64,000 nt of DNA from Gammaproteobacteria bacterium (GCA_013373375.1 JABXHY010000018.1:43113-107112); one strand, 5' to 3'; positions 1 through 44,416 are shown, counted from the first letter of the stretch. Program-made: numbers and translations. Notes: a model not told the origin generated them from the letters alone.

Positions 1-2
1 GC

Positions 3-1394
3 TTTAATCCTTTCAAAGGCATGGTAGAGCAAAAAGTCATTGTGCCAGAAGAAACCAAAAGTGTAATCAATAGCGCTTTTTCTGGACCCTGCGTTGCTGT
101 CACTAAGATGGGAAATGTATATGTCAGGAAAAATGACAAGTGGAATCCAGTAACTCAACCAAGTCCAATCCGTAAAATTTTACCTGATAGTCATTGTGAA
201 AAACTATGGACTCTTTCTGAGTTTAATCAGAATACAGTGAGTATATATTTGCTGGCTTATGACGAAAAAACAAACAGTTGGGAAAGTAAATTAGTGGAGC
301 AAGAGAATGGCTTTGACATCGAAGATTTCGTTCTGAACTTCCAACAAACACAGCTCGCTGCTTATTTTTATGATGACGTTTATCCTAAAATGAAAAATCA
401 AATTCGCCAATACGCCAGCCTGTCGTCCATCATTCGGACTTTACAACCTCATCCGTATTGGCGCGTAATTGATGGATCTACTGGTGATGGACGCTTTTTA
501 GTTGAAGTACAATCACCAACTCTTTCTCCAACCACTTATCTTGCGGACCTTACGAAAAGGAAACTAGTTAAATTAGATTCGAGATTGAAACAAGCTTCCG
601 ATACCTGGGTGACGACCAGTGCCCTTAAAGTAAAATCGAGTCACTCTTCGGAGTTAGTTGTTTATTTAACATCCTCGAGAGAAAAGGAGGATAAGCAAAA
701 AATCAAACCGCTAATTGTCAAACTGCATGGCGGACCTTTTGAAATTAGAGATCGATGGCGATTTGACCCAGAAGCTCAGTGGTTGGCCAAAAAAGGATTT
801 GATGTCGTCGCCATTAATTATCAGGGCTCAGGTGGTTTTGGTAAAAAGTTTCAATCGGCGGCCTATGGCAAGCTGAGAGATACCTTAGAAGATGATATAG
901 ATAATGTTCTTGATTACTTAGAGGCCAGTTTAGGCTATCAAAGAGAGTCTGCGTGTTTAATGGGCAGCAGTTTCGGCGGTTTTGCCGCTCTGTCTGAATT
1001 AATTGAAAACAATGAGAATTATAAGTGTGGCATTTTAATATCAAGCGTAACCGATCTAAATGGGATCTATCAGTCACTCGATAATCCCGAGGAAAAAGCT
1101 CAATTCGAAGAAAGATTCGGCGATATAACTAGCCATTCGTGGCAAAACGAAAATAATTTGGTTTCCCAAATTGGAGAGTTAAAACGTCCTTTACTGGTCA
1201 TCTACTCAGACGCCGACCCATTAGTGCCGAGTGAGCAAAGTAAGAAATTATTGAAACAATTAGAAGTATTAAATAAGACGCACCAATCTCTAGTACTGAA
1301 CATTAACTCACACAATCTAATTGATGCAGACTCAAGGACAGCAATTTATGAAAAAATAAATGAGTTTTTGTTATCCGTAAACCTAGTCAATTAA
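3..1394 (+). CDS. S9-family (prolyl oligopeptidase-like) serine peptidase, 5'-truncated by the window edge
   Basis: LHGGP, NYQGSGGFG, nucleophile GSSFGG, Asp in DADPLVP and His in NSHNL. The frame is open from base 3, so the ATG at 21 is probably internal. Confidence 0.85.
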   Translation, partial: FNPFKGMVEQKVIVPEETKSVINSAFSGPCVAVTKMGNVYVRKNDKWNPVTQPSPIRKILPDSHCEKLWTLSEFNQNTVSIYLLAYDEKTNSWESKLVEQENGFDIEDFVLNFQQTQLAAYFYDDVYPKMKNQIRQYASLSSIIRTLQPHPYWRVIDGSTGDGRFLVEVQSPTLSPTTYLADLTKRKLVKLDSRLKQASDTWVTTSALKVKSSHSSELVVYLTSSREKEDKQKIKPLIVKLHGGPFEIRDRWRFDPEAQWLAKKGFDVVAINYQGSGGFGKKFQSAAYGKLRDTLEDDIDNVLDYLEASLGYQRESACLMGSSFGGFAALSELIENNENYKCGILISSVTDLNGIYQSLDNPEEKAQFEERFGDITSHSWQNENNLVSQIGELKRPLLVIYSDADPLVPSEQSKKLLKQLEVLNKTHQSLVLNINSHNLIDADSRTAIYEKINEFLLSVNLVN

Positions 1395-2224
1395 CTTTCT
1401 AAGTTAATTTTCTGCAACTGGAATGTTTGCATTTGGTTTGTAATCGGGCATAAAAATTCTATTTTATAGGCGGTAAGTTGCAAGTCCTTATCGGTTGAAG
1501 TGTCTGTGTTATACAGTCGATCACCGACAATCGGAAATCCTTTGCTTGCTAAGTGCTTTCGTATTTGATGTTTACGTCCAGTTTCTATTTTTATTTTTAG
1601 TAAACTGTTTGTTCCTTCGTAATGAATGCATTCAACGTGACTGATGGCTGACTTTCCATCTATTGGAGTGTCTATAGTAACATTGCTATCATATGGCCAC
1701 TTACCAGACACTACCGCTTGATAGTATTTGTCAACTGTTCGAGTGGAAAATAAGTTTGATAATTGACCAGCTGCCTTTTTGCTGTGAGCAATTAAAATTA
1801 AGCCACTGGCGGCTCGATCGAGCCGATGAACAATAAAAGAATTACGTTGCGGCTTTAAGTTTTGTTCTGCCCATCGCGCAATGGTGCAGTGATCTCCCCA
1901 TTTTGAACCTTGACTCAATAGTCCTGACGGCTTATTCCACACACTGTAATCGGACATGTCTTTAATGAGTTCAGGGTTAGGAATAGAGGCACTTAAAACT
2001 TTTGGATCATAATACATATCCAATTGACTGCCCGCTGACAGAACTTTTTTTGCACGACGAACTCGTTGTGTTCTCTTCCCCTGAGTTAGCCACACACAAC
2101 CCTTATTTAGAGCATCTTTGAGTTTTTGTTTTGATAAGGTGCAGTTGCGCGCAAGTGTTTCAATAACTGTTTCATTTGATTCGGTAATTAGAACTTGGAT
2201 TTCGAGTTTCTTCTGGTCAGACAT
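1391..2224 (-). CDS. RluA-family 23S rRNA pseudouridine synthase with N-terminal S4-like region
   Basis: NKPSGL, catalytic HRLDRAASG, IETGRKHQIRKH and GDRLY motifs. Stop overlaps the S9 peptidase stop (TTAA 1391-1394). Confidence 0.9.
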   Translation of the reverse strand: MSDQKKLEIQVLITESNETVIETLARNCTLSKQKLKDALNKGCVWLTQGKRTQRVRRAKKVLSAGSQLDMYYDPKVLSASIPNPELIKDMSDYSVWNKPSGLLSQGSKWGDHCTIARWAEQNLKPQRNSFIVHRLDRAASGLILIAHSKKAAGQLSNLFSTRTVDKYYQAVVSGKWPYDSNVTIDTPIDGKSAISHVECIHYEGTNSLLKIKIETGRKHQIRKHLASKGFPIVGDRLYNTDTSTDKDLQLTAYKIEFLCPITNQMQTFQLQKINLES

Positions 2225-2234
2225 ATTGTATCAA

Positions 2235-4010
2235 TTAAGCTTCTGAGGAAGGGGTATTCCCATCGGTATGGTAATTTTTATATTGCTCCGAGGGCGGTAG
2301 CGCGTATATGTTGACTCGATTACGACCATCACGTTTTGCTTCGTACAACGCATCGTCAGAATGTTTCAGTAGTTTGTCGAGCTCGTATCCCGACACACGA
2401 CTAACGGTTAAGCCAAAACTGGCGGTTATTTGGAACTCTTTACCCGTTTCAGTCGTATTAATTTCCATTAAACCTTTTCGAATGTCTTCTGCAATTTCTC
2501 GTGCTTTATCCAGTTCGCAACCCGGAAGCAGAATAGCGAACTCTTCTCCTCCAAGTCTTCCAAAAATATCGATTTTCCGAATGATATTTTTAATTTTCTC
2601 AGGAATTTTTTGTAATACCCAATCGCCTACGGGGTGACCAAAGGTGTCATTAATATTTTTGAATTTATCGAGGTCAAATAAAATAAAACTCACTGCATCA
2701 GCTCTGCTTTCGCATGCTCTAAGTACGCTTTCACTCTCTGCGGTAAAGTGTCGTCTGTTTGCAATTCCTGTCAAGGAATCGAACTCCGCAAGTTGTCTTA
2801 ATCTTACATGGGTTTTTCGAGTTCGGTAAGCCCACATTATCAAGAAAGTAATGATTATACCCAGCAAAACTATAAATAAGGTTTTTGTTTTTGCTTCTTG
2901 CTTCGACAGTATTTTTTCTAGTGTAAGAGCTTCATTTTTCTTATTTAACAGCTCTATCTGAATGTTTTTCTCTTGAAGCTGATGGCTGGCCGTTTGAATT
3001 GCAATTTGCTTTCTTTTATTTTCATCTAAGTTCAATCGTTCAAATTCGTAGTATTTTTCAAGCAGCTCGACAGATTTTTCACCATTACCTCTGAGTTTTT
3101 CAATTTCATAAAGTGTTTTATAGGCGGAGACCACCGATTTGTAAGGTAGCTTATCTTTGTTTAATGAAATGGTTTTTTTACTTAAAGATTCTGCCGCAGC
3201 ATAACTTTGTTGTTTAAAGTAACTTTGCGCCAGGATATTGTAAAACTCTGCAGTCAATACTGGGTAGCCAATTGACTCAACCACTTTTAAGTGAGGCGCG
3301 AGTAATTCACTGGCCTTTTTATATTGTTTATCCGATAACAGTTTTTTCCCTTTTAAATGACTATTAAACTGTACCCATAACTCTTCGTTAGCTTGTGAGC
3401 ACGTCTCTATTGCTTGCTCAAAAAAAAACTCTTTGTCTTTCAATTCAACACCAGCTTCATTCATCAATGAATATGCCTTGCACTTGACCTTTAAATCTGA
3501 AGATGAGTTTAGCAGGCGCTCAGCATTATTATAGCCTAAACCATACTCACCAAGTTGGTTGTAAAAGCCAGCCTTTATTCCCGACGCATAAGTATTTAAT
3601 TCTTCATTAACTATTTGGTCGAGAAATTCTTGCGCTTCATTAATGAGCAACAATCCTTCCAACCAGTTTTGTGAGATTGTGTAAATATTGACCAGTAAAA
3701 GAGTGGCTTTAGTTTTTATTTCACTTGATGTTGTGTTATTTCTTACTTTTTCAGCCAGCGTTTCTGATTCAGAAATTTGGCCCTGTAAGCTAAACGACAG
3801 CGCTTTTAAGTACAATTGATAATAAAGGAAGTCTTGGTTTGAATGAGTTGAGTAGTCAAGCTGATTAACGGTGGAAATAAATTCTCTTACGTTTTCAGTC
3901 CTTAAATTCTCAATTTCCTTTAAACGTGCAAATGCATTGTCATTTTCGGAGGCAAAAGCTGCCTCCGAAAATGACAAATATAACAAAAAAATGAATAGTC
4001 GGTTGATCAA
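2235..4010 (-). CDS. Membrane-anchored diguanylate cyclase with periplasmic TPR-like helical sensor
   Basis: N-terminal signal peptide (MINRLFIFLLYLSFSEAAFA), ~350 aa helical repeat region, one TM (FIVLLGIIITFLIMWAY), then DSLTGIANRR, DLDKFKNINDTFGH, RKID I-site and GGEEF. TTG start overlaps the upstream stop (TTGA). Confidence 0.88.
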   Translation of the reverse strand: MINRLFIFLLYLSFSEAAFASENDNAFARLKEIENLRTENVREFISTVNQLDYSTHSNQDFLYYQLYLKALSFSLQGQISESETLAEKVRNNTTSSEIKTKATLLLVNIYTISQNWLEGLLLINEAQEFLDQIVNEELNTYASGIKAGFYNQLGEYGLGYNNAERLLNSSSDLKVKCKAYSLMNEAGVELKDKEFFFEQAIETCSQANEELWVQFNSHLKGKKLLSDKQYKKASELLAPHLKVVESIGYPVLTAEFYNILAQSYFKQQSYAAAESLSKKTISLNKDKLPYKSVVSAYKTLYEIEKLRGNGEKSVELLEKYYEFERLNLDENKRKQIAIQTASHQLQEKNIQIELLNKKNEALTLEKILSKQEAKTKTLFIVLLGIIITFLIMWAYRTRKTHVRLRQLAEFDSLTGIANRRHFTAESESVLRACESRADAVSFILFDLDKFKNINDTFGHPVGDWVLQKIPEKIKNIIRKIDIFGRLGGEEFAILLPGCELDKAREIAEDIRKGLMEINTTETGKEFQITASFGLTVSRVSGYELDKLLKHSDDALYEAKRDGRNRVNIYALPPSEQYKNYHTDGNTPSSEA

Positions 4011-4219
4011 GCTTGCTTCTCTTCTTTTTCGGGTATCTCGCTTGGCTCTTCTTGCGGAGTCTCCTCTGTTTCATCATCATCCTCTGCTGGTGCAATCATA
4101 CAAACGATGTCTGGTAGTGATTTTTTGTACAGCTCGAGCTCTTCAGGAGATAACTCAGTAATACTTTTGTTGGTCAGAGTCTTTTCACCAAGTTCTTCGA
4201 GTAACTTTATAACATTCAT
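4007..4219 (-). CDS. Split-borosin RiPP precursor peptide (short helical leader, DIVCMIAP core, acidic follower)
   Basis: 70 aa directly downstream of the borosin methyltransferase with SD AAGGA. N-terminal LLEELG helix, hydrophobic core I38-A45, and 13 Asp/Glu among residues 46-67. Confidence 0.8.
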   Translation of the reverse strand: MNVIKLLEELGEKTLTNKSITELSPEELELYKKSLPDIVCMIAPAEDDDETEETPQEEPSEIPEKEEKQA

Positions 4220-4238
4220 GCGCTTTTCCTTTTGGATT

Positions 4239-5027
4239 TTAATTGATGACTTTCAAAGAGTGTTTTTGCTTTTTTTTTCTAGGTATTAATTTTTTCGAAG
4301 GAGGAATTATTAATGTCGATTTCTGTGATAGTTGTTGAACACTCAGTTCCGATAATTTGCAAGTCAATTGTATCGCATTTTCAACGGCATTCGATGCTGC
4401 CTCGTAAACAATTACTTTATGGTCGAGAGGAAAGTCTTCTGCCAGTAAATCGGTTAGTTCTAACAAATGTTGTTCATTTTTATTCAACTGGGTATGGCTT
4501 TTATCACCTGCAGCCATCACTTGCCATAAAATTAGATAAGCCGTTGGGTCGATGTTTCTTTGGTAAAACATGAACTGACTGGCTTCAAAATGTTGGCAGC
4601 CGTATTTACCGGGATCAATACCTAAGTCGGCGTATAAACAGTCTGCAGCTGAGATACCTGGCAACATTATTGCTTCGAATCCTTCTGCTTTTGCTTGTAG
4701 AATAGCTTTGTGAGAAGGATTAACAAAAACACCTGGATGACCATAAAAAGCAGCGACCGCCTTTTTACCTTGTCGTACTGGTGTTAGTAATGCTTCGGTC
4801 ATTTCTTGATAGGTGATCTTGCGTGACTTACCTTTATTGTAATACTGCTGTAAAGATACAACATTTGGATGAATGTCTTTTAGCCATAATTCAAAGAGAG
4901 AATCTGAAGATGCAGCAAATACAATATCAGCGCTCTTTAGGGCGTGGCGAGCGATTGGCGTTATGTGTGCACCTATTGTGATGCCGACGCCAAGACATAT
5001 CAAACTGCCTCGATTTCCCTCATTCAT
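4239..5027 (-). CDS. Borosin-type SAM-dependent backbone alpha-N-methyltransferase (OphMA/SonM-like)
   Basis: GSLICLGVG, QQYYNKGKSRKITYQEM (catalytic Y/R/Y as in OphMA YYDNGKSRLNTY), FYGHPGVFVNPSH, LPGISAADCLYADLGIDP, GCQHFEASQF. ATG 5027 preferred over TTG 5042. Confidence 0.9.
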   Translation of the reverse strand: MNEGNRGSLICLGVGITIGAHITPIARHALKSADIVFAASSDSLFELWLKDIHPNVVSLQQYYNKGKSRKITYQEMTEALLTPVRQGKKAVAAFYGHPGVFVNPSHKAILQAKAEGFEAIMLPGISAADCLYADLGIDPGKYGCQHFEASQFMFYQRNIDPTAYLILWQVMAAGDKSHTQLNKNEQHLLELTDLLAEDFPLDHKVIVYEAASNAVENAIQLTCKLSELSVQQLSQKSTLIIPPSKKLIPRKKKQKHSLKVIN

Positions 5028-5091
5028 GAAAATGTACTTCAATTGGATTCACTTTTTGATGCGCCATGATGCAATAAAAATGTGAACTATT

Positions 5092-5607
5092 TCAAATAGT
5101 TTCTTTGATTTTTGAGTAAAGTTGTACATCGCTGGGAGTATTTTTTTCACAATTTGACTTAACAGGTTCAAAACCCAGTCGATTAATCAGTTTTATTCCT
5201 GCTTTATTGGCTACCTTTAGATTTGCAAAAATATTGTTCAGACTAAGCTTATCGAAACCATAGGTCACTACGGCCGATACACAATGAAAAGCAATCCCTT
5301 TTCCTTGCGCCTCTCGTTGCAGAATAATGCCGATTTCTGCTGACCGCTTAGATAAACTTAAATCTTTAAATGCGATAAATCCAAGGGGAGTTGTTGTGTT
5401 ATTCCTGCAAAGAACAAACATCATGTAGTTGGCTGCAGATTTTTGGGTCGCTGTTAGGGTGGTGAGAAAGGCCGATTTTGCTTGTGCAGTGTTTAGCTCG
5501 ACTCCGGTGTATTTCATTAGTTGAGGGTCGGTATAAGTTTGAATATAAAACTTTTCATCTTCAGCTTTTAACTCGCGAAATGTGACTCGGTCTGTTTTGA
5601 AATACAT
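5092..5607 (-). CDS. RimJ/RimL-type GNAT N-acetyltransferase
   Basis: MYFKTDRVTFREL start typical of Acetyltransf_3, AEIGIIL, acetyl-CoA loop QGKGIA, NKAGIKLINRLGF. ATG 5607 preferred over TTG 5628. Confidence 0.8.
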   Translation of the reverse strand: MYFKTDRVTFRELKAEDEKFYIQTYTDPQLMKYTGVELNTAQAKSAFLTTLTATQKSAANYMMFVLCRNNTTTPLGFIAFKDLSLSKRSAEIGIILQREAQGKGIAFHCVSAVVTYGFDKLSLNNIFANLKVANKAGIKLINRLGFEPVKSNCEKNTPSDVQLYSKIKETI

Positions 5608-5909
5608 AAGGTTATAACGCTTTTGCAAAACGCTCGATGTTTGGAAGTGGGTAATTTTACTAAATGCTAACCCAAGCTTATGTTGAGGTCATCAATTCCT
5701 TGGTCGAATCTTGCTTAAAAAGTGGGCCTGACGTAAGATCATGCCCCTTTTTATTCAGGGGTGTGAGGCGCAATTAAGTCGACCATTTGCTTGTTTTGTA
5801 GGTAAAGTTTTTTGAGCTGGCTGTACAAAAATAGAGCAAGGTAATCGAGCACACCAACCATTCCCTGATTGTTTAATGATAAGACAAAGTTAATTTTGAC
5901 AGGATTTTT

Positions 5910-7691
5910 ATGATGATGCGCAGTCACTATTGTGCCGACTTAGTCGGATTACCGGAAACTTCCGAAGTCGCTATTGCTGGCTGGGTTCATCGTCGACGAG
6001 ATTTGGGCGGGCTAATCTTTTTACAAATACGCGATCGAAGTGGCATTGTTCAGGTGACGATTGAACCAGACCAAGGTGATGTGTTCGAAGCTGCAGATGA
6101 ATTGCGCAGCGAGTATGTGGTTTTAGTCAAAGGTAACATTCGCAATCGACCTGAAAATATGGTGAATCAAGACATGGTGACTGGCGCTATAGAAGTGGTT
6201 GCCAGCTCAATTGAGTGCCTAAACAAGTCAGAAACACCCGCGATTTTGATTGACGGTCATGAAGATGTCGCTGAGGAAACGCGTCTTAAATATCGCTATC
6301 TGGATTTACGTCGCCCTGAAATGGCGAAAAAGTTTTTATTTCGTACGAAGCTAACTTCAGCACTGCGCCGATATTTGGACGCTGAAGGCTTTTTGGATAT
6401 GGAGACGCCCATTTTAACGAAAGCGACTCCTGAAGGTGCGCGTGATTACTTGGTTCCAAGTCGCACGCACAAAGGTTCTTTTTTCGCATTACCGCAATCA
6501 CCTCAGCTTTTTAAACAATTGTTAATGATGAGTGGTTTCGATCGCTATTACCAAGTCGTCCGCTGCTTTCGTGACGAAGATTTGCGCGCCGATCGTCAGC
6601 CAGAATTTACCCAGCTCGATATCGAAACTTCGTTTATGGACGAAGAGGGGATCATGGGGCTTATGGAAAACATGATTCGAAGCGTGTTCAAAGAAATGCT
6701 GGATGTTGAGCTACCAAATCCATTTCCACGTATGCCTTACAGTCAAGCGATGGAAAAATACGGTTCCGACAAACCTGACTTACGAGTTGATATGCCGATC
6801 CACACGGTTGACGACATAATGCAGTCGGTCGACTTCAAAGTATTCAGCGGGCCCGCTAACGATACAGAAGGAAGAGTAGGTGTTCTTAATCTTAAAGGCG
6901 GCGCAGAACAAGTCAGCCGAAAGAAAATAGACGAGTACACCAAGTTTGTCGGTGTGTATGGAGCTAAAGGATTAGCGTTCATTAAAGTGAACGATCGAGC
7001 AGCAGGCATTGAAGGTTTACAGTCGCCAATTGTTAAGTTTCTTACACCAGACGTTGCTGAGCAATTATTGGAACGTGTTGGCGCTGAAACAGGTGATATT
7101 CTGTTTTTTGGATCGGATAACTCGAGAGTGGTTGCCGACGCACTTGGCGCGCTGCGTTTAAAATTAGCAAATGATTTCGAGTTGTTGAGTAATCAATGGA
7201 AACCATTATGGGTCGTCGACTTTCCAATGTTTGAAGAAGATGATGGTCAATTGCAAGCGCTTCATCATCCATTCACTTCGCCAAAAGAGCTTGATCCGGA
7301 AGCGCTTAAAGCTAATCCGACCGGTACATTGTCGCGAGCTTACGACATGGTATTGAACGGTTGTGAAGTGGGCGGTGGTTCAACTCGTATTCATAACACA
7401 GACTTGCAACAAACCATTTTTGAAATATTGGGAATTTCAGAAACCGAAGCACGAGAAAAGTTTGGCTTTTTACTTGATGCGCTTAAGTTTGGTTGTCCGC
7501 CACATGGCGGGATTGCGTTTGGTTTGGATCGACTAGTTATGTTAATGGTTGGGGCTTCGTCAATTCGTGATGTTATTACCTTTCCGAAAACAACAACAGC
7601 AGCTTGTCCACTAACCGAAGCGCCAGCAAAAGTGTCTGACGCGCAGTTGAGTGAATTAGGCATTGAGTTAAAAAAGAAATCGGCGGAATAA
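5910..7691 (+). CDS. aspS: Aspartate--tRNA ligase
   Basis: MRSHYC start, [54 protein letters not shown]. Probably the non-discriminating Asp/Asn type common in this context (not determined). Confidence 0.98.
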
Positions 7692-7700
7692 AAAGTAACC

Positions 7701-7739
7701 CTAGGATTTTAACAAAGGAGTCAAACAAAGGAGTTAAGT
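7701..7739 (+). repeat. 13-bp tandem duplication containing the Shine-Dalgarno (AACAAAGGAGT x2) plus a third AGGA
   Basis: AACAAAGGAGT at 7711-7721 and 7724-7734, AGGA at 7703-7706, yebC ATG at 7740. Confidence 0.8.
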
Positions 7740-8483
7740 ATGGCTGGACATAGTAAATGGGCCAATATAAAACACCGAAAAGCCGCGCAAGACGCTAAAC
7801 GTGGAAAGATCTTTACCAAGATCATTCGTGAACTGGTGGTCGCTGCGAAATCTGGCGGACCTAATCCAGAAGATAATCCAGGACTGAGAGCCTGTATTGA
7901 TAAAGCGCTTGGCGCGAACATGAAAAAAGACACCATTGAAAAGGCTATCGCACGTGGTGCTGGCAATACCGATGGTGACAACTATGAAAATTTAACATAT
8001 GAAGGTTATGGGCCTGGTGGTGTAGCGGTTCTGGTTGAGTGTTTGACCGATAATAAAAATCGCACGGTTGGAGAAGTCAGACACGCGTTTACCAAGCATG
8101 GCGGAAATTTAGGCACATCAGGATCCGTCGCCTACCTTTTTGATAAAAAAGGCCAGATGATTTTCGGTGATGACATCGAAGAAGATTCTCTTATGGAAGC
8201 AGCTCTTGAGTCAGGAGCTGAGGACGTCGTTACGCATGATGATGGTTCTTTTGAAGTGTTGACGACTCCTGAAGAATTCATGACCGTTAAAGATGGTATT
8301 GTGGCAGCGGGCTTCAAACCTGAAAATTCGGAAGTTGCTATGTTGCCCTCTACCCAAGCGGAGCTAGAAGCTGAAGATGGAGCAAAAGTATTACGTTTAG
8401 TTGAGCGTCTGGAAGATTTAGATGACGTGCAAAATGTTTATACTAACGCAGACATTCCAAGTGAAGCCTACGAATTACTTTAA
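7740..8483 (+). CDS. yebC: YebC/PmpR family protein
   Basis: [45 protein letters not shown]. Canonical aspS-yebC-ruvC position. Confidence 0.97.
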
Positions 8484-8534
8484 TTTTTACCGAGTTGTGG
8501 TGTCGGTCGAACTTAGATATTGAACTGAACTTAT

Positions 8535-8572
8535 AAAACCTCGATAAGCCAATCGCAGTCGAGGTTTTTTTT
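8535..8572 (+). terminator. Rho-independent terminator after yebC
   Basis: AAAACCTCGA (8535-8544) / TCGAGGTTTT (8559-8568) stem followed by a T run. Confidence 0.7.
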
Positions 8573-8666
8573 ATGCCCGTTCGTGATACCTTAAAGCTAA
8601 CCACTAAGCATTTATTTTTTTGAGACTGTGATTACCCGTATGCAACTGAGTGTTAAAGAGTAATTT

Positions 8667-9185
8667 ATGGCAATTATTTTGGGGATCGATCCGGGCTCAA
8701 GGATTACTGGCTTTGGCATTATTGAAGCTCAGGGAAGCAAGATTCGGTATGTCACCAGCGGTTGTATCAAAATTAAAGAAGCACCGTTATCTGAAAAGCT
8801 GTTGCAAATTTACGATAATCTGTCAGAAGTGATTCGAAAATACAATCCGACAGAGGCCGCTATTGAGCAGGTTTTCATGGCAAAGAACGCGGACTCCGCA
8901 TTAAAATTAGGGCAAGCCAGAGGCGTTGCTATGGTTGCCGCTGCCAATCATGCGTTGTCCGTTGCGGAATATTCGGCGCGACAAATTAAACAAGCTGTTG
9001 TGGGAACCGGCGGCGCGGATAAAGCACAAGTACAACATATGGTGACATCACTGCTATCGTTATCAGCGCAACCGCAAAGCGACGCAGCTGATGGCTTAGC
9101 TGTCGCGATTTGTCACTGCAATACAATGCAATCAATGGTAGCCCAAATGGGTGCCAATAAAAGAAGAAGAGGGCGAGTACGTTGA
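8667..9185 (+). CDS. ruvC: Holliday junction resolvase
   Basis: [34 protein letters not shown]. Confidence 0.97.
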
Positions 9186-9790
9186 TTGGAAGACTAACAG
9201 GCATACTTTTAGAGAAAGCTCCTCCAGAACTGGTGATTGACGTCAACGGAGTCGGTTACGAGTTACAAGCTCCAATGACGACCATATTTAATTTGCCTGA
9301 GAACGGGCAAAGAGTAACCTTGTTCACGCATCTATCGGTGAGTGAGAATGCACATAATTTGTTTGGCTTTGGAGCCAAACAAGATCGACAATTGTTTCGG
9401 GAATTAATCAAAGTTAATGGGGTTGGACCTAAACTGGCCGTTGCTATCTTATCGGGTATGACAACCGATGAGTTTGTCCGATGTGTCCATGATGGTGAGG
9501 TGTCTCAGTTAGTTAAGTTACCGGGTGTTGGTAAAAAAACGGCAGAAAGACTAATCATCGAAATGAAAGATCGATTAAAAGATTGGGGCTTTACCGCAGG
9601 TTCGAAGTCTGAATCAAGCGCAGAATCATCGTCGAACTCGTCGTCTGACATACAGCGCGAAGCTGAGAGTGCATTAATTGCCTTAGGTTACAAACCACAA
9701 GATGCTGCTAAAGCCGTTAGTCGAGTTAAAGGTGAAGCGTCGACCAGCGCAGAATTAATTCGGTTAGCTTTAAAGAATATGGGAAAATAA
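9182..9790 (+). CDS. ruvA: Holliday junction branch migration protein A
   Basis: [50 protein letters not shown] start overlaps ruvC stop. Confidence 0.97.
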
Positions 9791-9855
9791 CCTGACGTCA
9801 GTTAATTGATGAATAGATCTGACAGGTTGATAAGAATATTAACGAGTAGTTTATT

Positions 9856-10878
9856 ATGATTCATGAAGATCGGATTATTGCAGGTGATTCTCAGACGCCA
9901 GAAGAAGAAAGGTTTGACCGGGCTATCCGGCCGACCAAGTTAGAAGACTACGTCGGCCAGCCGCAAGTAAAAGAGCAAATGGAGATTTTTTTACAGGCGG
10001 CGAAATCAAGAAACGATGCATTGGATCATGTGTTAATTTTCGGCCCTCCTGGGCTTGGAAAAACCACACTCGCGAATATTATTGCCAATGAAATGGGCGT
10101 TACGATTAAGTTTACATCTGGACCTGTGTTGGAAAAGGCCGGTGATCTGGCAGCTTTGCTGACCAACCTTGAAGAAAATGACGTTTTATTTATTGATGAA
10201 ATCCACCGTTTAAGCCCTGTTGTTGAAGAGATTTTGTACCCCGCCATGGAAGATTATCAAATTGATATCATGATTGGTGAGGGACCCGCAGCGCGTTCGA
10301 TCAAGCTCGATTTGCCGCCGTTCACGTTGGTGGGCGCAACAACTCGTGCAGGTCTTTTGACCTCTCCACTGAGGGATCGATTCGGTATTGTGCAACGTTT
10401 GGAGTTTTATAATATCGATGAATTGACCGATATAGTCGCGCGTTCAGCTGCAATATTGGGCTTGCAAGCCGATTCGGAAGGTGCGCGAGAAGTTGCTCGC
10501 CGGTCACGAGGAACACCGAGAATTGCTAATCGCCTATTGCGACGAGTGCGAGATTACGCGGAAGTTAAAGGTGATGGTTCAATCAGTAATGAAATCGCAG
10601 AAAAAGCGTTAAATATGCTTGAAGTGGATGAGCAGGGTTTCGACACCATGGATCGCAAACTACTTTTGGCGATTATCGACAAGTTCAGCGGAGGTCCTGT
10701 TGGGCTAGATACTCTTGCTGCAGCTATCGGCGAAGAGCGAGATACTATTGGGGACGTCATTGAACCATTCTTGATTCAGCAAGGTTACATCCAACGCACG
10801 CCGCGAGGTAGAACGGCCACTCAAAGGGCCTACCAGCACTTTGGTATTATCCCGCAAAAACCCGATCTGTTTGATTAA
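9856..10878 (+). CDS. ruvB: Holliday junction branch migration ATPase
   Basis: IRP, Walker [10 protein letters not shown], Walker [22 protein letters not shown]. Confidence 0.98.
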
Positions 10879-11034
10879 TTAACTCAAAATAATATGCAAG
10901 AGCTGTTTTCTCGAGCTTGTTCACATTTTGACACCCTGTTTGTGTTTCACCTGTGCCAGCAAAAGCGATATAGTGTGCGCTGCGCAAAAAATATTGAAGA
11001 ATTATTTAAATAACACTACTAAACGGTTGAAACG

Positions 11035-11442
11035 ATGGAATTTTCTTTTCCTGTTCGTGTCTATTATGAAGATACTGACGTCGCTGGCGTTGTTTACTAT
11101 GCTAATTACTTAAAATTCATGGAGCGCGCTCGCACCGAGTGGTTACGTGAGTGGGGGTTAGATCAATCCGTATTGATTGAGCAGGACGTTGCTTTTGCGG
11201 TTCGTAAAGCAGAAGTCGATTATTATCGACCCGCTCGGTTCAATGACGCTTTAAACGTTGTATCGACCATTAAAGAAGTACGAGGTGTTCGCGTTTTATT
11301 TCATCAAAAAATTGTGTCAATGACCGATCCTGAACATGTTTACGCCGAAGGAAATATTCTCGTCGTGTGTGTAACCCTGAGTACTATGAAGCCCCGTTCA
11401 ATGCCAACAGAGTTATTAGAGGAAATGACCCGTGACGCATAA
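11035..11442 (+). CDS. ybgC: Tol-Pal-associated acyl-CoA thioesterase
   Basis: [31 protein letters not shown], immediately upstream of tolQ. Confidence 0.96.
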
Positions 11443-12121
11443 TCAACTTTCTATTACTGACCTGTTTTTGAACGCGAGTTTGATCGTTCAACTTATTATG
11501 TTGGTGCTCGTTGCCTTGTCATTTATTTCGTGGGGAATGATCATTGACCGATTTCGAACCTTGAAACTGTCCAGCACTTCGAGTCGAAAGTTTGAGGATA
11601 AGTTTTGGTCAGGCATCGACTTAAGTAAACTTTATAATGAGCTGAGCAGTCGACGTGTTCCTCCTTCTGGGATGGAGTTAGTGTTTATGTCGGGCTATCG
11701 AGAATTTGTCCGCTTACGAAATCAAAAAGGCACCGGTCCAGGTGCGGTTATGGAAGGCGCGCACAGAGCTATGCGTGTGGCTCATTCTCGAGAAATCGAT
11801 AAATTAGAAACTAACCTTTCATTTTTAGCGACAGTCGGATCAACGACGCCTTATATTGGCCTATTTGGAACTGTCTGGGGAATTATGAATTCTTTTATCG
11901 CCTTAGGTTCTGTAAAGCAGGCGACTTTAGCCATGGTTGCTCCCGGTATTGCAGAAGCTCTTATTGCAACCGCCATGGGATTATTTGCCGCAATTCCAGC
12001 GGTAATCGCTTACAACAAGTTTAATCATTCGGTACAAAAAATCGAAAATCAATACGATAATTTTGTCGAAGAGTTTTCTGGTATTTTGCATCGAAAAGCG
12101 CACAGTTCTGCGGGAGCTTAA
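11432..12121 (+). CDS. tolQ: Tol-Pal motor subunit TolQ
   Basis: [43 protein letters not shown]. Confidence 0.97.
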
Positions 12122-12124
12122 ATA

Positions 12125-12544
12125 ATGAAGCCAAACCGTAGGAAGCCAATGGCAGAAATCAATGTGGTGCCTTACATTGATGTCATGTTGGTGCTTCTGG
12201 TTATCTTTATGATTACTGCTCCGTTGATAACGGCAGGCGTTAACGTTGATTTGCCACAGGTTGACTCAGAACCTATGTCTGCTAACGAAGAGCCTCCTCT
12301 TATTGCGAGTATTGATGCCAGTGGCAATTATTATTTATCACTCGGCGATGCAAGAGATCAAGCGCTTGAAGCACAAGAGTTGGTTGCATTGGTTGTTAAG
12401 CATAAAGAGACCCACCCAAAAATGGCAATCCTTATTAATGGCGATAAAAATGTTGCCTACGATAAAGTTGTGCGACTCATGGTGTTGCTGCAGCAAGAAG
12501 CCGGTATTGAGAGTGTTGGCCTGATGACAGAACCACTCGAGTGA
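12125..12544 (+). CDS. tolR: Tol-Pal motor subunit TolR
   Basis: EINVVPYIDVMLVLLVIFMITAP, ExbD/TolR motif, operon position. Confidence 0.97.
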   Translation: MKPNRRKPMAEINVVPYIDVMLVLLVIFMITAPLITAGVNVDLPQVDSEPMSANEEPPLIASIDASGNYYLSLGDARDQALEAQELVALVVKHKETHPKMAILINGDKNVAYDKVVRLMVLLQQEAGIESVGLMTEPLE

Positions 12545-13318
12545 TTGGAGCTCGGTTTGAGTAAACGGTTAATTATTTCTCTTTTTTTCTCAGCTATTGC
12601 GCATTTGATTGTGTTAGGGTTTTTATTACTTAACTTTTCATTCAACCAAGTTGAACTGAGTAAAGAAAAAGTAGCGCCTAATATTAATGCTGTAGCGGTT
12701 GATGGTGAAGCAATTCGCAAACAAATACAGCAACAAAAACAACAAGTTCAAAATGCGAAAAGAGAAAAACAACAGCAAGAAAATCGAATCAAACGTAAAA
12801 ATGAAGAAGAGCGTCAAAAGAAATTAAAAGCAGAGCAAGATAGGAAGAAAAAGCTCGCGCTTGAAAAAGAAAAGAAACGAAAAGAAGAAGAAAAAAAGAA
12901 ACGAGAAAAAGAGCTTGCAGAGAAAAAGCGCAAAGAGCAAAAAGCGTTGGAAGAAAAACTCGAAAAGCAACGCAAGTTAGAGGAAGAATTACTTGCGGAA
13001 CAGTTTGCTGCTGAACAGCAAGCGATGGCAGCAAAACGGCAGGCTATTATGTCGGAAGTTGATATTTATCGCACACGAATTGAAAGTAAAATTCGACAGT
13101 ACTGGAACGAACCTGAGCGAGATGGTTATTGTATTTTTAATTTACGTTTAGGGCCTGGTGGAATTTTACTAGGCTTTAAACGTCTGGAAGATCAAGGGCG
13201 GTTTTGTGATTCGGCGGAAAGAGCAGTCTCCCGCGCCGCGCCGCTGCCAATGAGTAGTGATCCAGATGTGCTTGAAGAGTTACGCGACTTAAACGTTTTA
13301 CTAAAACCAAAAGAGTGA
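12545..13318 (+). CDS. tolA: Cell envelope integrity protein TolA
   Basis: N-terminal TM with SxxxH (SAIAH), long charged helix, TonB/TolA C-terminal domain. Lies between tolR and tolB. Confidence 0.9.
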
Positions 13319-22452: not shown

Positions 22453-25400
22453 CTATTCTTGGTGATGCTTAATAAATTCAATTGTCTCCTCGCGAGACAT
22501 TGGTTTTGCGAAGTAGTAACCTTGTACGCTGTCTGCTCCGAATTCTCGAACGAAATCTAATTGCTCAGCAGTTTCTACACCCTCAACGACGCTAGTTTTT
22601 TGCAATGACTTGGCCAAATCTATAATCGTTTTGATAATAGTTTCAGCTTCTTTCTGTTCGCCAATTCGCGCCACAAAGCTTCGATCAATTTTGAGCTTTT
22701 CAATTGGAAGTTGGTGTAAATATTTTAATGACGAATACCCAGTACCAAAATCATCCAGTGCGAGATCAATTCCAATCTTCTTTAGCTTTCGTATTAAAGT
22801 TAATGCCACTTCCATATCCGTCATCAGCATACTTTCTGTAAGTTCAAACTCAAGCGCTCCAGGTTGAATCTGGTAATGTGCTAGCCTTTCTTTCATATAA
22901 AGGTCAAAATCATTTTGCTTAAAATGCCGAGCAGATAAATTAACCGCCAGTCCTATTTCAAAATCATGACTATGCCATAATTGTAGCGTTTCAAGCGCAA
23001 GCTCGATCAGCTGTTCAGTTAGCGGAATAATTAGTCCAATCTCTTCAGCCACAGGAATAAAGTCTATCGGTGAAATTATCTCGTTATTACTTCGTTGCCA
23101 GCGCGCCAGTGCTTCAAATCCTGCTATTTTGTTTGTATGAAGGTCGATTTGTGGTTGATATAGAAGGGTAAACTCATTGTTCTTTATTCCTTCTCGTATC
23201 ATTTTTTCCATCGACATACGATTGATAGCTTCATCATTCATTGAAGCAATGAAGTACTTAAAATTATTTCGCCCAGAATTTTTTGCATGATACATTGCCA
23301 TGTCAGCATGTTTTAAAATTATATTGGCTTCACTCCCGTCGTCAGGAAAAACAGAAATTCCAATACTGGGTGACGAATTTACTTCATGCTCTCCGATTGT
23401 AAGAGGCGAAGCCATTTTTTCTAATATTGTATTGGCGATACGACTTGCAGTATCTATGGAGTAAATATCTTCGAGCATTACAACAAACTCATCACCACCA
23501 AGTCTTGCTACTGTATCGTTTCGACGAACTGCACTTTTTAAAATTCCGGAAACTGCTATTAAAAGTCTATCACCTACTTCGTGACCTAGTGAGTCATTCA
23601 CTTGTTTAAACCGATCGAGATCAATGAAAAATACCGCAACCATTTGCTTTCGACGCTGTCCATTCTCAATTGCATGTGTTATTCGATCCATCAGTAATGC
23701 GCGATTGGGCAAACCAGTAAGCGGGTCATAATTGGCTAAACGTTTTAACTCTTCTTGAGCGGCTTTTTGCTCACTGATATCAGTGGCACTAATGACGTAA
23801 TAGACTTCAGAGTCATTATTTTTGAATTTATTAACGCTTACCAGTACTGATAGAGGCTCTTGATATTTTCTTAAAACTAACCCTTCAGTTTCAAATTCAT
23901 TGTTTGACTCCAGCCGGTGCTTCATTGTTTGTGCAATGGGTAACTGTGAGTCTGGATTGACAAGGACCGACAATGGCTTTTCTACCACTTCATTAAGATC
24001 GATACCTGTGGTGTTGAAAAACGAGTGGTTGGTCACTTTTACATTAAATACTTTGTCGAGAATAATAATAATGTCTCGAGTGTTGTCGAATGCCTCAAAG
24101 AATAAATCCATTTTATCTTGTGTTGACTTGGTATCTGTAATATCAGTGAAAGTTCCTGTGACCCTTATAGGATCTTTATTACTGTTGACTTCCGTTACTT
24201 TTGCTAAGTCGCGATACCAACACCACTCATCTTGCTGGTTTTTGAGGCGGTATACATGTTCGAACGATGAATCTGGTTGAGATAAAAACCTTCTCCACTT
24301 GGCTGAGTAAGCGTCTTTATCGTCTGGATGAATGAAATTGATTTTTTCACTCAAGTTTATGGCATCATTTTCATTTTCGACTAAATGATTTAGTCGCGGT
24401 TCAAAGATCTCGTCATTTTTTGCATGCCAATCCCACATACCACTATTTGATCCATTAAGTGCTAACTGCAGTCTTTCTTCATTGGAAGCTAATATTGTGT
24501 TGGTTTGAAGGAGATATTTTTGCCGACGATAGCGTTGATATCCAATAGTTGAGATGATTGCAAGAGCAACTAGCACATAGGTGGTTAGCGCAATAGGTGA
24601 TAGCCAAGGTGCTGGATGGTTGACTATAGACAATACATAAGGTTCTGATAACTCACCATTAGTGTAGTCCACTGCTGCAATATAGAGTTTGCTTTTGCCT
24701 GGTTTAAACTTTGGAAATAAAAGAGTGTTATTAAATGTTGAAGTAATCTGAGTGGCTGAGTCTCCCTCTATCCAGTAATCGTATTTTACCTGTTCCGTTT
24801 TATTAAATAGTCGTGCTGAGTATTCGATGTTTAAACCAAAGTCATCATACTCAAGTTCAATGGTATTGGCGTCAGAATAATTTCGATTACCTTTTGATAG
24901 TAAAGAGACTTTGCTAGGCATAACATTAATAACATGATTATGCTCGATATCAAGTCTTTGCAAGTCGATAAATACCACCCCGCGAGTTGTACCAAATGCC
25001 CAGTTATCGTCATTTATATTTACAGTAGTGCCACCAATAAACTCATTACTGATTAAGCCATCTGTTTTTGAAAATTTTTGATTGCTGTAATTCTCACGAT
25101 TGATTTTTATTAGACCGTCATTACTGGTGACCCAAACAAAATTTTCATCGTAGGTAAAAACATCCAGAAAATTACTAGTGTTAAGTTCAGTAGGTGGAAT
25201 GATTTTCAGTGTTTCGCTCGAATCGACATCTACAATGTAGAGCCCAAGTCCTGAATAGTTTATCCAATACTGGTTATCTACTTTAAGTATTGATTGTGGA
25301 ACAGCTTGGGTTGAGTCATCTTTTTTCAGTTCGTGCAAGACTTTAGTTTGTTGAGTGGTTCGGTCATAAGTGACAACAGAGTTATACTTAGCAAAAAATA

Positions 25401-26952
25401 GTTGATTGGTCGAAGGTTCACTTTTCAAGATAAATTGAAATGCATTATCGCCTTTTTGCTGTGTTAGGCCTTCTATTTCACTAAACTCTCCCGATTCAAC
25501 ATTGAATAAGAAAACGTCTTCGTCCTGCAGTACGAGCAAGTTATCTTCATCGACCGGTGAAACAAAGTAAGTTGTTTTGTTTAATCGTTTAGTTTGTTCT
25601 GGTGTTAGTACAAGTTCAACTTCTGACTGGTCATTTTTGTTTAATAGTTTAATGCCTTTTGTTCGATGTAATATTGTTCGAGAAGGGCTAGTGAATATCT
25701 GATAAATTGACTCATCGCTAAAAGGTGATTTTTCATCTTTGTTAACGAAATACTGTTCAGTTGTGTCATCAATTAAATTGTATTTCGCCAGACCATGAGT
25801 CGTACCAATCAATAAATGATTTTCGTCTAGTTTACGCATAGCATAAACATTATTACTCGGTAGGCGTTGTGGCGTGCCTCGTTGATTGGATATTATGCCC
25901 GTTACGGCTCGGTTCGGTCGCCATTTAAAAAAGCCGTCTTCTCGACTACTGAGCCATAGATTTTCTTCGCGATCGACAAATAAACGCGTTATATCATTAT
26001 CGTAAAGTTGGTAAGGCGTGTCGGAGTATCGAATTAAATGTGAAAGCTTATTGTTTTCATCGATAAAATAGAGCCCATTGTCGGTTGCTGCATAAATGGT
26101 GTCATCGTAATCAATCATATGCCAAATATTTCGACTGGCGTTTACTTCATAAATTGAGTCCGCTGTTATCTCTTCATTCCGCTCCAGAGATGACATTATG
26201 GAATTTAGGGTAATTCGATATAGTCCTTCTACGGTTGCGATGTAGATGTAACCCTGATTAAAGTTGAAAATTCCTTTAACATTGTTTTCATCGGAGTTTG
26301 GCGGCGCTATGGTATGGTTTAGCTTTCGAAAGACACGGTTTTTTAAGTCATAGGAGAACAAGCCAACTGAAGTTCCAATGAGTAAATAGTTTTTTATGCG
26401 ATATATGGATCGGATGATGTCCTGATCACCGACGTTACCAGGCAGGTCTGTTATTTGGAATAAATAAGAATATTGATCACTTGCTCGATCGTATTGGTAG
26501 ACTTGATACAGGCTTATTAGCCATAGATTATTTTGGTTGTCTTCATATACTTCAGTTATCCTTTGGGCTGAAGTTTTTTCGCTCATACCTTTAGGAAGTG
26601 TAACCGCTGTAAAGGATTCTGTTTCGGGTTGATAGCGATAATTTTTATTTCTCCCGCCACTTACCCAAGTTTCGCCTTCTTTATCAGTGTAGAGCAAAGT
26701 GATGTAGGCCGCGTTGAAAGCATCTGTCGGGCCGTTGACGGGTCGTACATCATAAGCGTCGTATCGGTTAAGTCCCTCTTCTGTCCCAATCCACAAATAT
26801 CCCGCTTTGTCTTGAGTTAGCTCCCATACGACGCTCTGACTTAATCCGTCTTGAGTTGATATATGTTCGAGCTGTATTGGAGCGGATATCGAGTAACCGA
26901 TCTGAGGGGCTATAAGTGTACAAAAAATGCTCAGAAAGACATATTTTTTCAT
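22453..26952 (-). CDS. Membrane sensor GGDEF-EAL protein: periplasmic Reg_prop beta-propeller, TM, PAS domains, GGDEF and EAL
   Basis: Signal peptide, DGLSQSVV...QDKAGYLWIGTEEGLNRYD propeller repeats, TM (PWLSPIALTTYVLV), PAS (IHPDD...WYRD), RRND I-site with GGDEF, EALARW, DDFGTGYSSL, EGVE, QGY. Confidence 0.92.
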   Translation of the reverse strand: MKKYVFLSIFCTLIAPQIGYSISAPIQLEHISTQDGLSQSVVWELTQDKAGYLWIGTEEGLNRYDAYDVRPVNGPTDAFNAAYITLLYTDKEGETWVSGGRNKNYRYQPETESFTAVTLPKGMSEKTSAQRITEVYEDNQNNLWLISLYQVYQYDRASDQYSYLFQITDLPGNVGDQDIIRSIYRIKNYLLIGTSVGLFSYDLKNRVFRKLNHTIAPPNSDENNVKGIFNFNQGYIYIATVEGLYRITLNSIMSSLERNEEITADSIYEVNASRNIWHMIDYDDTIYAATDNGLYFIDENNKLSHLIRYSDTPYQLYDNDITRLFVDREENLWLSSREDGFFKWRPNRAVTGIISNQRGTPQRLPSNNVYAMRKLDENHLLIGTTHGLAKYNLIDDTTEQYFVNKDEKSPFSDESIYQIFTSPSRTILHRTKGIKLLNKNDQSEVELVLTPEQTKRLNKTTYFVSPVDEDNLLVLQDEDVFLFNVESGEFSEIEGLTQQKGDNAFQFILKSEPSTNQLFFAKYNSVVTYDRTTQQTKVLHELKKDDSTQAVPQSILKVDNQYWINYSGLGLYIVDVDSSETLKIIPPTELNTSNFLDVFTYDENFVWVTSNDGLIKINRENYSNQKFSKTDGLISNEFIGGTTVNINDDNWAFGTTRGVVFIDLQRLDIEHNHVINVMPSKVSLLSKGNRNYSDANTIELEYDDFGLNIEYSARLFNKTEQVKYDYWIEGDSATQITSTFNNTLLFPKFKPGKSKLYIAAVDYTNGELSEPYVLSIVNHPAPWLSPIALTTYVLVALAIISTIGYQRYRRQKYLLQTNTILASNEERLQLALNGSNSGMWDWHAKNDEIFEPRLNHLVENENDAINLSEKINFIHPDDKDAYSAKWRRFLSQPDSSFEHVYRLKNQQDEWCWYRDLAKVTEVNSNKDPIRVTGTFTDITDTKSTQDKMDLFFEAFDNTRDIIIILDKVFNVKVTNHSFFNTTGIDLNEVVEKPLSVLVNPDSQLPIAQTMKHRLESNNEFETEGLVLRKYQEPLSVLVSVNKFKNNDSEVYYVISATDISEQKAAQEELKRLANYDPLTGLPNRALLMDRITHAIENGQRRKQMVAVFFIDLDRFKQVNDSLGHEVGDRLLIAVSGILKSAVRRNDTVARLGGDEFVVMLEDIYSIDTASRIANTILEKMASPLTIGEHEVNSSPSIGISVFPDDGSEANIILKHADMAMYHAKNSGRNNFKYFIASMNDEAINRMSMEKMIREGIKNNEFTLLYQPQIDLHTNKIAGFEALARWQRSNNEIISPIDFIPVAEEIGLIIPLTEQLIELALETLQLWHSHDFEIGLAVNLSARHFKQNDFDLYMKERLAHYQIQPGALEFELTESMLMTDMEVALTLIRKLKKIGIDLALDDFGTGYSSLKYLHQLPIEKLKIDRSFVARIGEQKEAETIIKTIIDLAKSLQKTSVVEGVETAEQLDFVREFGADSVQGYYFAKPMSREETIEFIKHHQE

Positions 26953-41000: not shown

Positions 41001-41035
41001 GATACGAAATATAACTCTGACATTTGGAGACGGTT

Positions 41036-44000: not shown

Positions 44001-44416
44001 TTATGGAGTTTGAAAGAATTTCTGAGCGAGGTGGTGTATTAGGTGCGATGGAAACTATGTATCAGCGTTCCAAAATACAAGAAGAATCATTGTATTATGA
44101 AACGCTGAAACACACAGGTGAACTACCGATTATAGGTGTTAATACATTCTTGTCTTCCAAAGGCTCTCCGACAACGATTCCGCAAGAAGTTATTCGTTCA
44201 ACTAAAGAAGAAAGAGAATATCAAATTCAAACCGTTGCTTCGCAGCACGATCGTTTTGCAAACGAAGGTGAGCAAGTGATTGAAAAAGTGCAGCAAGCTG
44301 CATTACAAAACCAAAATATTTTCAATGAGCTTATGGAAGCAACTAAATATTGTACACTTGGCCAAATCTCTGGAGCTCTTTATCAGGTAGGTGGTCAATA
44401 CAGACGTAATATGTAA
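41036..44416 (+). CDS. icmF: Fused isobutyryl-CoA mutase/MeaB GTPase (AdoCbl dependent)
   Basis: B12-binding [73 protein letters not shown] 41036. Confidence 0.95.

Follow-up and report, generated by a model that had tools for sequence, protein, structure and literature searches.

The 64,000-nucleotide stretch of DNA analysed here, from a Gammaproteobacteria bacterium (GCA_013373375.1 JABXHY010000018.1:43113-107112; referred to throughout as the window, with positions counted from its first letter), carries on its minus strand, at 2235-5607, a methyltransferase gene followed by a small open reading frame (ORF); the labels that annotation pipelines attach to the two go no further than 'TP methylase' and 'hypothetical protein'. 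The question raised by this locus is whether the two genes encode a borosin alpha-N-methyltransferase (NMT) and its precursor peptide and, if so, which part of the peptide would become the product. Split borosins are a recently defined class of RiPPs, peptides that are made on the ribosome and modified after translation, and the locus, recognised from raw sequence, is almost certainly a type IV split borosin cluster.

The block comprises four co-oriented minus-strand genes. In order of transcription, these encode a GNAT acetyltransferase of 171 aa (5092-5607 from an ATG, or 5092-5628 from an alternative TTG; PF13302), a methyltransferase of 262 aa assigned by PF00590 and phmmer to the stand-alone type IV borosin NMTs (4239-5027 from an ATG, or 4239-5042 from an alternative TTG), a peptide of 70 aa that family alignments place with the precursor SamA1 of Shewanella amazonensis SB2B (4007-4219), and a diguanylate cyclase of 591 aa with a TTG start, in which TPR-like, transmembrane and GGDEF regions follow one another (2235-4010; PF00990 and weak TPR matches). 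The peptide is without a Pfam match, and its ORF is preceded by an AAGGA Shine-Dalgarno-like sequence. The gene order and the spacings of 64 bp, 19 bp and a 4-bp overlap reported in the initial annotation were confirmed by the ORF list and a coordinate check, and separate gene calling on the public contig gave the identical four products (171, 262, 70 and 591 aa). The enzyme gene is present as described, but its product, first given as 263 aa, has 262 residues, the higher figure including the stop codon.

The methyltransferase, the precursor and related loci

Every one of the 25 PDB matches of the methyltransferase in a phmmer search is a borosin NMT, and no non-borosin chain is found at E <= 1e-3. 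SonM of Shewanella oneidensis MR-1 is matched at E 2.5e-68 and the fungal enzymes dbOphMA, OphMA and MroMA at E 1e-46 to 1e-44, and sequence identity is 50% to SamM1 of S. amazonensis and 47.5% to SonM. Among NCBIfam models the best is YabN at E 7.6e-13, followed by the precorrin methylases CobI at 9e-4 and CobJ at 1e-2; all are below cut-off, YabN far below. The enzyme groups with SonM, OphMA and dbOphMA, as the initial annotation had proposed, and the grouping with CbiE, CobI or RsmI methylases against which that proposal had been set beforehand did not occur, the precorrin models reaching, in round figures, only E >= 1e-3. The siroheme synthase CysG of the window (53704-55278, minus strand) served as an internal control and scores 180 bits with PF00590, yet it is only 29% identical to SamM1 (E 7e-4).

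In a MAFFT alignment with SonM and 11 relatives, the SonM residues Y58, R67, Y71, Y93, H95 (of YGHP), F99, E146, W166 and Q167 are all kept in the methyltransferase, and the position of E173 is occupied by Asp; the list of residues important for catalysis and clamp locking is that of PMC8429565. The side clamp is 3 residues shorter than that of SonM, as it is in all 11 aligned relatives. Both motifs cited at the outset as borosin hallmarks, QYYNKGKSRKITY and FYGHPGVFVNPSH, occur in the translation. PF00590 spans residues 14-225 of the 267-aa ORF, with no second domain and no fused binding domain or core. On this sequence evidence, the methyltransferase is a borosin alpha-N-methyltransferase and not a tetrapyrrole methylase. 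The C-terminus of the enzyme (4239-4290, minus strand) is a short basic tail, …RKKKQKHSLKVIN, which the window shares with the metagenome scaffold L018; this scaffold of 687 bp is its closest relative, 70% identical across the C-terminal part of the NMT. The enzymes of Colwellia, Shewanella and Paraglaciecola instead carry a C-terminal extension of 20-35 aa with NQxxLxxLAxLDK.

The 70-aa peptide divides, in the family alignments, into a leader (residues 1-43; 4091-4219) and an acidic tail (residues 44-70). Searched alone it matches nothing in Pfam, NCBIfam or PDB, and a single-sequence PDB search gave no match to SonA, the precursor of S. oneidensis. A profile search with the precursor family recovers at least 114 sequence clusters at E <= 1e-3, including Sden_0807 of S. 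denitrificans OS217, the shewasin D host. The relationship to SonA is seen only with family profiles and not with the single sequence, the family profile aligning with the SonA leader in hhalign at a probability of 78% and E 1.8e-5. Members of the family share a helical N-terminal leader (M..VIQ.LE.MG.DASL), a hydrophobic patch (PDIVCxxx), a Pro and an acidic tail; of 109 homologues, at least 90% retain the junction Pro, and the acidic run always comes next. This sam-type design of hydrophobic motif, Pro and polyanionic tail is recognisable in the window peptide, which matches SamA1 by BLASTP at E 8.8e-8 without composition correction and 0.005 with it. The core PDIVCMIA|PAEDDDE of the window aligns with PDVFCVFF|PAEDEPE of SamA1, and the junction reads …KKSLPDIVCMIA|PAEDDDETEE… in the window and …LDVTPDVFCVFF|PAEDEPEKEQQ… in SamA1.

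Compared with L018, the precursor ORF has a proportion of non-synonymous differences (pN) of 0.22 and of synonymous differences (pS) of 0.83, the latter saturated, and is thus judged to be under purifying selection; the 15 residues PDIVCMIAPAEDDDE are identical between the two despite the synonymous saturation. The small ORF, put forward in the initial annotation as a borosin precursor, is by its sequence a real homologue of such precursors, given the match of the family profile to the SonA leader, the alignment with SamA1 and the homologues downstream of related enzymes. The accompanying likeness to the SonM/SonA split system is upheld in that enzyme and precursor are separate proteins, but the precursor is of the SamA1 type and not of the SonA type.

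Sixteen related genome loci (L001-L016) were found via the enzyme in Shewanella, Colwellia, Paraglaciecola, Thalassotalea and Neptunicella, and the window enzyme is 50-56% identical to the NMTs of the genome representatives. A small ORF lies just downstream of the enzyme gene in 15 of the 16, L016 being a frameshifted fragment, and these small ORFs align with the window peptide. The triad of NMT, small acidic ORF and TPR-GGDEF gene recurs in 13 of the 14 related loci of sufficient length (the exception, L010, ends within the cyclase), and the comparison of gene neighbourhoods proposed initially thereby indicates that the arrangement is not due to chance. The module sits in a differing chromosomal context in each genus, and in the window its G+C content is 0.35-0.38 (2500-4500) against 0.43-0.46 in the adjacent aspS-yebC-ruvCAB genes (6000-11000), features that are consistent with horizontal acquisition or mobility. 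In Colwellia psychrerythraea GAB14E (L013, 46-5191), a second NMT and a second set of GNAT, precursor and cyclase genes stand upstream of the matched one; after the NMT at 609-1475 of that locus comes an ORF of 146 aa (1518-1958), whose N-terminus is leader-like and in which HKA[LF]F[FV]ANDGQEFTMSAEVEN is repeated about five times; it looks like a multi-core precursor.

The leader of the window peptide is 43 aa long, compared with 59-67 aa in most Colwellia and Shewanella homologues, and the family alignment places the absent internal stretch of about 19 residues roughly at helices 2-3 of a five-helix domain. AlphaFold2 models the window precursor at a mean predicted local distance difference test (pLDDT) score of 73, with helices only at residues 3-14 and 25-34 before the PDIVCMIA motif; a fold search with this model returned nothing meaningful in PDB because the model is too small. 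The long-leader homologue P0018 is modelled with five helices at a pLDDT of about 90 over residues 1-50, and the nine top-ranking fold matches from all of PDB are chains of SonA, with probabilities up to 0.94, target-normalised template modelling scores of 0.53-0.72 and, in seven of the nine, root-mean-square deviations of 2.2-2.4 Å. The combination of a short leader with a Colwellia-type core is shared only by L018; Paraglaciecola precursors are comparably short, but have another core. Legionellales have previously been found to contain leaders that lack a binding domain (Lee et al., bioRxiv 10.1101/2024.01.09.574750), and the shortened leader is therefore variation within the known range. 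A naturally minimised leader of 43 aa with two predicted helices could define the minimal binding determinant and be useful for peptide engineering.

Processing of the precursor and its probable product

SamM1 adds one methyl group to Phe52 of SamA1, and SamP (shewasin A, a pepsin-like A1 peptidase) cuts Phe53|Pro54 efficiently only on methylated SamA1, with basal activity on the unmethylated form; the anionic peptide that it sets free, PAEDEPEKEQQ…, is unmethylated, and both the cut and the release were demonstrated in vitro as well as in S. amazonensis with the sam cluster overexpressed (Lee et al., bioRxiv 10.1101/2024.01.09.574750). In a MAFFT alignment, Ile42 of the window peptide (codon 4094-4096, minus strand) falls on the methylated residues Phe52 of SamA1 and Ile65 of SonA (bioRxiv 10.1101/2024.01.09.574750; PMC10549244), making it the most likely site of backbone N-methylation, and Ala43|Pro44 falls on the SamP cut site. 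A sam-type route is favoured for the window with moderate confidence. The 262-aa S-adenosylmethionine-dependent enzyme would dock the 70-aa precursor via its N-terminal borosin-binding leader and methylate a backbone amide within PDIVCMIA, most likely that of Ile42. By analogy with SamM1, SamA1 and SamP, the methyl mark on the leader would license an endopeptidase, in relatives a pepsin-like A1 peptidase of which none is linked in the window, to cut before the near-invariant Pro44. Cleavage at Ala43|Pro44 would free the unmethylated 27-aa polyanionic tail (Pro44-Ala70, PAEDDDETEETPQEEPSEIPEKEEKQA; 4010-4090, minus strand), with 13 acidic and 2 basic residues, which the PF13302 GNAT may then acetylate.

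The initial annotation had envisaged a backbone-methylated peptide as the end product. That is probably not the case, because the precursor is of the SamA1 type, and the SamA1 system methylates the leader and releases an unmethylated polyanionic peptide; by this analogy, the product is more likely to be the 27-aa acidic tail than a methylated peptide. The tail and the junction Pro are the most conserved features of the family, which argues that the tail is the functional part.

Several points weigh against the sam-type route. The mechanism itself comes from one preprint and one organism, with the final natural product unconfirmed, and an Ala-Ala variant of SamA1 is cut only weakly by SamP (bioRxiv 10.1101/2024.01.09.574750), Ala being the P1 residue of the window. 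Binding of the window leader by the enzyme is an assumption, as the modelled leader is short by about 19 residues. Finally, no A1 peptidase was found in the 64-kb window or elsewhere in contig positions 102,802-185,386 (82.6 kb) by a motif scan of window ORFs of at least 100 aa, by tblastn with three A1 proteins of Colwellia and Thalassotalea and with SamP, and by extending the search along the contig over 10 kb on either side of the window. A database search with the A1 family gave 990 matches, and among the 120 listed none is on a contig as long as that of the window (219,583 bp).

In L001, L004, L005 and L006 the genes run A1 peptidase, GNAT, NMT, precursor, TPR-GGDEF; the A1 peptidases (PF00026) of these loci share 38-42% identity with SamP, and in L005 a linked A1 peptidase goes together with Ala at P1 (…FVA|PAEDDE), as in the window precursor. 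The description of the window locus as complete is not supported, because the A1 peptidase that stands beside the GNAT in several relatives was not found in the 82.6 kb around the cluster. According to Lee et al. (bioRxiv 10.1101/2024.01.09.574750), the peptidase gene of clusters of this kind is either part of the cluster or located at another place in the genome. For the A1 protein of C. psychrerythraea GAB14E, the longest contig measures 142,898 bp, the same as the contig of that strain's borosin cluster, but the protein is not encoded within 6 kb of the cluster. The window provides a case in which the other four genes, for GNAT, NMT, precursor and cyclase, are retained although no A1 peptidase is linked to them.

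The main rival to the sam-type route is a SonA-like outcome, in which the product would keep an N-methylated hydrophobic core (for example DIVCMIAP…), possibly N-acetylated, as shewanellamide A does; it is considered unlikely. The enzyme is nearly as close to SonM as to SamM1, no A1 peptidase was found near the cluster, the window core is bounded by Pro36 and Pro44, and shewanellamide A is a 16-mer that keeps two backbone methylations (PMC10549244). However, the core and tail of the precursor match SamA1 and not SonA, which the single sequence failed to find; the core alignment with SamA1 stands at E 0.005 to 8.8e-8, and it is the long acidic tail and junction Pro that the family conserves most.

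Less probable again is that nothing is released and that the precursor, once methylated, works within the cell by itself or in complex with the enzyme, for example as a cyclase regulator or a cation-binding acidic protein. The invariant core of these loci is NMT, precursor and TPR-GGDEF, with peptidase and GNAT as accessories; the precursor stop overlaps the cyclase start, and the two are no more than a codon apart in L018; the cluster is without a transporter or peptidase; and the native role of son-type clusters has been called elusive (PMC10549244). The TPR region of the cyclase, however, is predicted to be periplasmic and so beyond the reach of a cytosolic peptide, and cleavage and release have been shown for SamA1 (bioRxiv 10.1101/2024.01.09.574750).

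Two genes past the cyclase lies a serine peptidase of the S9 family, 621 aa, which occupies 1-1394 (plus strand) and runs off the window start; the full gene is at 10831-12696 (minus strand) of L019. It is convergent with a gene for an RluA-family pseudouridine synthase. That this peptidase replaces the A1 peptidase as maturase, echoing the fungal OphP, is very doubtful: it is encoded less than 1 kb from the end of a block near which no A1 peptidase is visible, and the region of the cut site is rich in Pro (…MIAPAE…), but none of the 16 related clusters has an S9 homologue inside 6 kb, the solved structures nearest to the window peptidase, acylaminoacyl peptidases and DPP-IV, match with an E of only about 4e-13 and are not prolyl oligopeptidase macrocyclases, and the gene is on the opposite strand with the unrelated RluA gene in between. 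As the main maturase it was rejected, being non-syntenic in every relative. An ordinary tetrapyrrole, RsmI or YabN-type methylase beside a chance ORF, to which PF00590 as the sole Pfam match and YabN as the top, far sub-threshold NCBIfam model might point, has a negligible probability, being ruled out by PDB matches that are borosin NMTs in 25 of 25 cases (against precorrin models at only E 1e-3 to 1e-2, and a CysG so distant from SamM1), by the kept SonM residues, by precursor homologues in 114 clusters, always beside such an enzyme where the context is seen, and by purifying selection.

Partner genes, neighbouring genes and host

The GNAT gene stands immediately upstream of the NMT gene on the same strand. 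Its product matches PF13302 at E 9e-24, keeps the acetyl-CoA motif QGKGIA, and aligns colinearly, at 25-34% identity, with the GNATs encoded in the same position upstream of the NMT in L001, L004, L005, L006 and L013; the nearest solved structures are SpeG-type GNATs, at E 2e-6 only. The cyclase matches PF00990 at E 1.4e-45, with weak TPR matches, and shows 31-36% full-length identity to the cyclases whose genes follow the precursor genes in L001-L015. Its active site reads GGEEF (residue 487) and its RxxD I-site RKID (residue 478). Because hydropathy indicates a signal-like N-terminus, one strong transmembrane segment at 377-395 and a basic stretch after it, the TPR-like region of about 355 aa is predicted, from hydropathy alone, to be periplasmic and the GGDEF domain cytoplasmic. 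The 4-bp overlap of the cyclase start with the precursor stop, together with the start within one codon of the stop in L018, suggests translational coupling. The cyclase would then be a translationally coupled synthase of cyclic di-GMP (c-di-GMP) with a predicted periplasmic sensor domain, its presumed link to the peptide kept by synteny. Co-transcription of the block is suggested by the spacing and by the absence of any terminator-like site on the minus strand inside it, in a promoter and terminator scan that was uninformative overall, its sites being no more numerous than in shuffled controls (8 against 11.0±3.5 and 4 against 3.6±1.6).

The initial annotation had tied the peptide to acetylation and c-di-GMP signalling. 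The GNAT and GGDEF genes are indeed present, but both associations were already published: among split borosin clusters, 56% have GGDEF and about 26% have PF13302 (Imani et al., bioRxiv 10.1101/2021.12.24.474128), and a membrane-spanning cyclase of the same kind with a periplasmic TPR region is described in the same work. A further, speculative proposal, quite unlikely at present, is that the acidic tail, perhaps N-acetylated and released from the two-helix leader by a non-A1 peptidase, is exported as a ligand of the TPR domain of the cyclase; if true, the locus would be a self-contained, autocrine peptide-to-c-di-GMP signalling module. A second large c-di-GMP protein of the window, 1499 aa (22453-26952, minus strand), combines a two-component-regulator propeller with PAS, GGDEF and EAL domains.

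The gene for the RluA-family pseudouridine synthase (1391-2224, minus strand) begins 10 bp past the cyclase end. The block of four genes first described is real, but this fifth co-oriented gene had been overlooked; it may be co-transcribed with the cluster, and is absent beside the 16 related loci. On the other side of the block, a 10-bp perfect palindrome, TTTTGCAAAA (5621-5630), lies 13 nt upstream of the GNAT ATG, in a 300-bp divergent intergenic region common to the GNAT gene and aspS, and is a possible operator site. The sonA gene of S. oneidensis is reportedly under strong ArcA repression. An Rfam scan of the entire window gave no match, and thus no rRNA or tRNA in the window and no riboswitch at the cluster. 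Elsewhere, the window encodes an IcmF-like fused B12-dependent mutase with a MeaB GTPase domain (1130 aa; 41024-44416, plus strand).

The host contig derives from a single seawater-metagenome DNA run. GuaA clusters at 90% identity or above with a protein from a Kangiellaceae metagenome-assembled genome, and RuvB, YebC and Der are singletons at 90% identity among about 15 billion proteins, from which it follows that the host has no close sequenced relative. The host is an uncultured marine gammaproteobacterium, possibly of the Kangiellaceae.

Comparison with known borosin clusters

The sam cluster of S. amazonensis SB2B consists of SamP, a PF13302 GNAT, SamM1 and SamA1 (bioRxiv 10.1101/2024.01.09.574750). 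The window resembles it in its stand-alone NMT, half of whose residues (50%) are identical to those of SamM1, in a precursor with a putative binding-domain leader, a P-D-[IV]-x-C-x-x-x motif, a Pro and a polyanionic tail, and in the PF13302 GNAT directly upstream of the NMT. It differs in having no linked A1 peptidase, in a leader of 43 aa with two predicted helices as opposed to 53 aa with five, in Ile-Ala at P2/P1 where SamA1 has Phe-Phe, and in a host that may belong to the Kangiellaceae rather than to Shewanella. The tail of the window peptide is also without the short hydrophobic C-terminus (…VNA, …VIGF) found in many relatives.

The son cluster of S. oneidensis MR-1 consists of SonM, SonA, the GGDEF protein SO1480 and the efflux pump SO1481 (PMC8429565; PMC10549244). 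Shared with the window are the type IV split architecture, an NMT that at 47.5% identity keeps the key residues, and a TPR-transmembrane-GGDEF gene directly downstream of the precursor. The SonA core, YLVIS…GNGD, is by contrast without an acidic tail, and two methylations are retained in the product derived from it, shewanellamide A; an efflux pump, but no GNAT, belongs to the son cluster, and SonM has a side clamp 3 residues longer than that of the window enzyme. ParM (in bioRxiv 10.1101/2024.01.09.574750) was set aside as a comparison, its precursor being of an unrelated type.

A sam-type precursor of Aliikangiella coralliicola, …SKIVCMLVPAKDDDDED…, is already in the RODEO dataset of bioRxiv 10.1101/2024.01.09.574750, from a genus named for its likeness to Kangiella. 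Loci of Colwellia, Paraglaciecola and Thalassotalea have the same triad of NMT, acidic-tail precursor and TPR-GGDEF as the window. More distant are the fungal OphMA, dbOphMA and MroMA, whose methyltransferase domain is homologous to the window enzyme (E about 1e-45). Fungal borosins possess the same catalytic residues, with enzyme, clasp and core in one polypeptide, and their product, a macrocycle carrying multiple methylations, is formed by the S9 prolyl oligopeptidase OphP. Every component of this kind of cluster has been described before, the GNAT and c-di-GMP associations included, and the differences of the window from the known clusters, namely a two-helix leader, no linked peptidase and an uncultured host, are modest; with three of four housekeeping proteins of that host, possibly one of the Kangiellaceae, lacking a 90% relative, the window extends the SamA1-type design to an uncultured bacterium.

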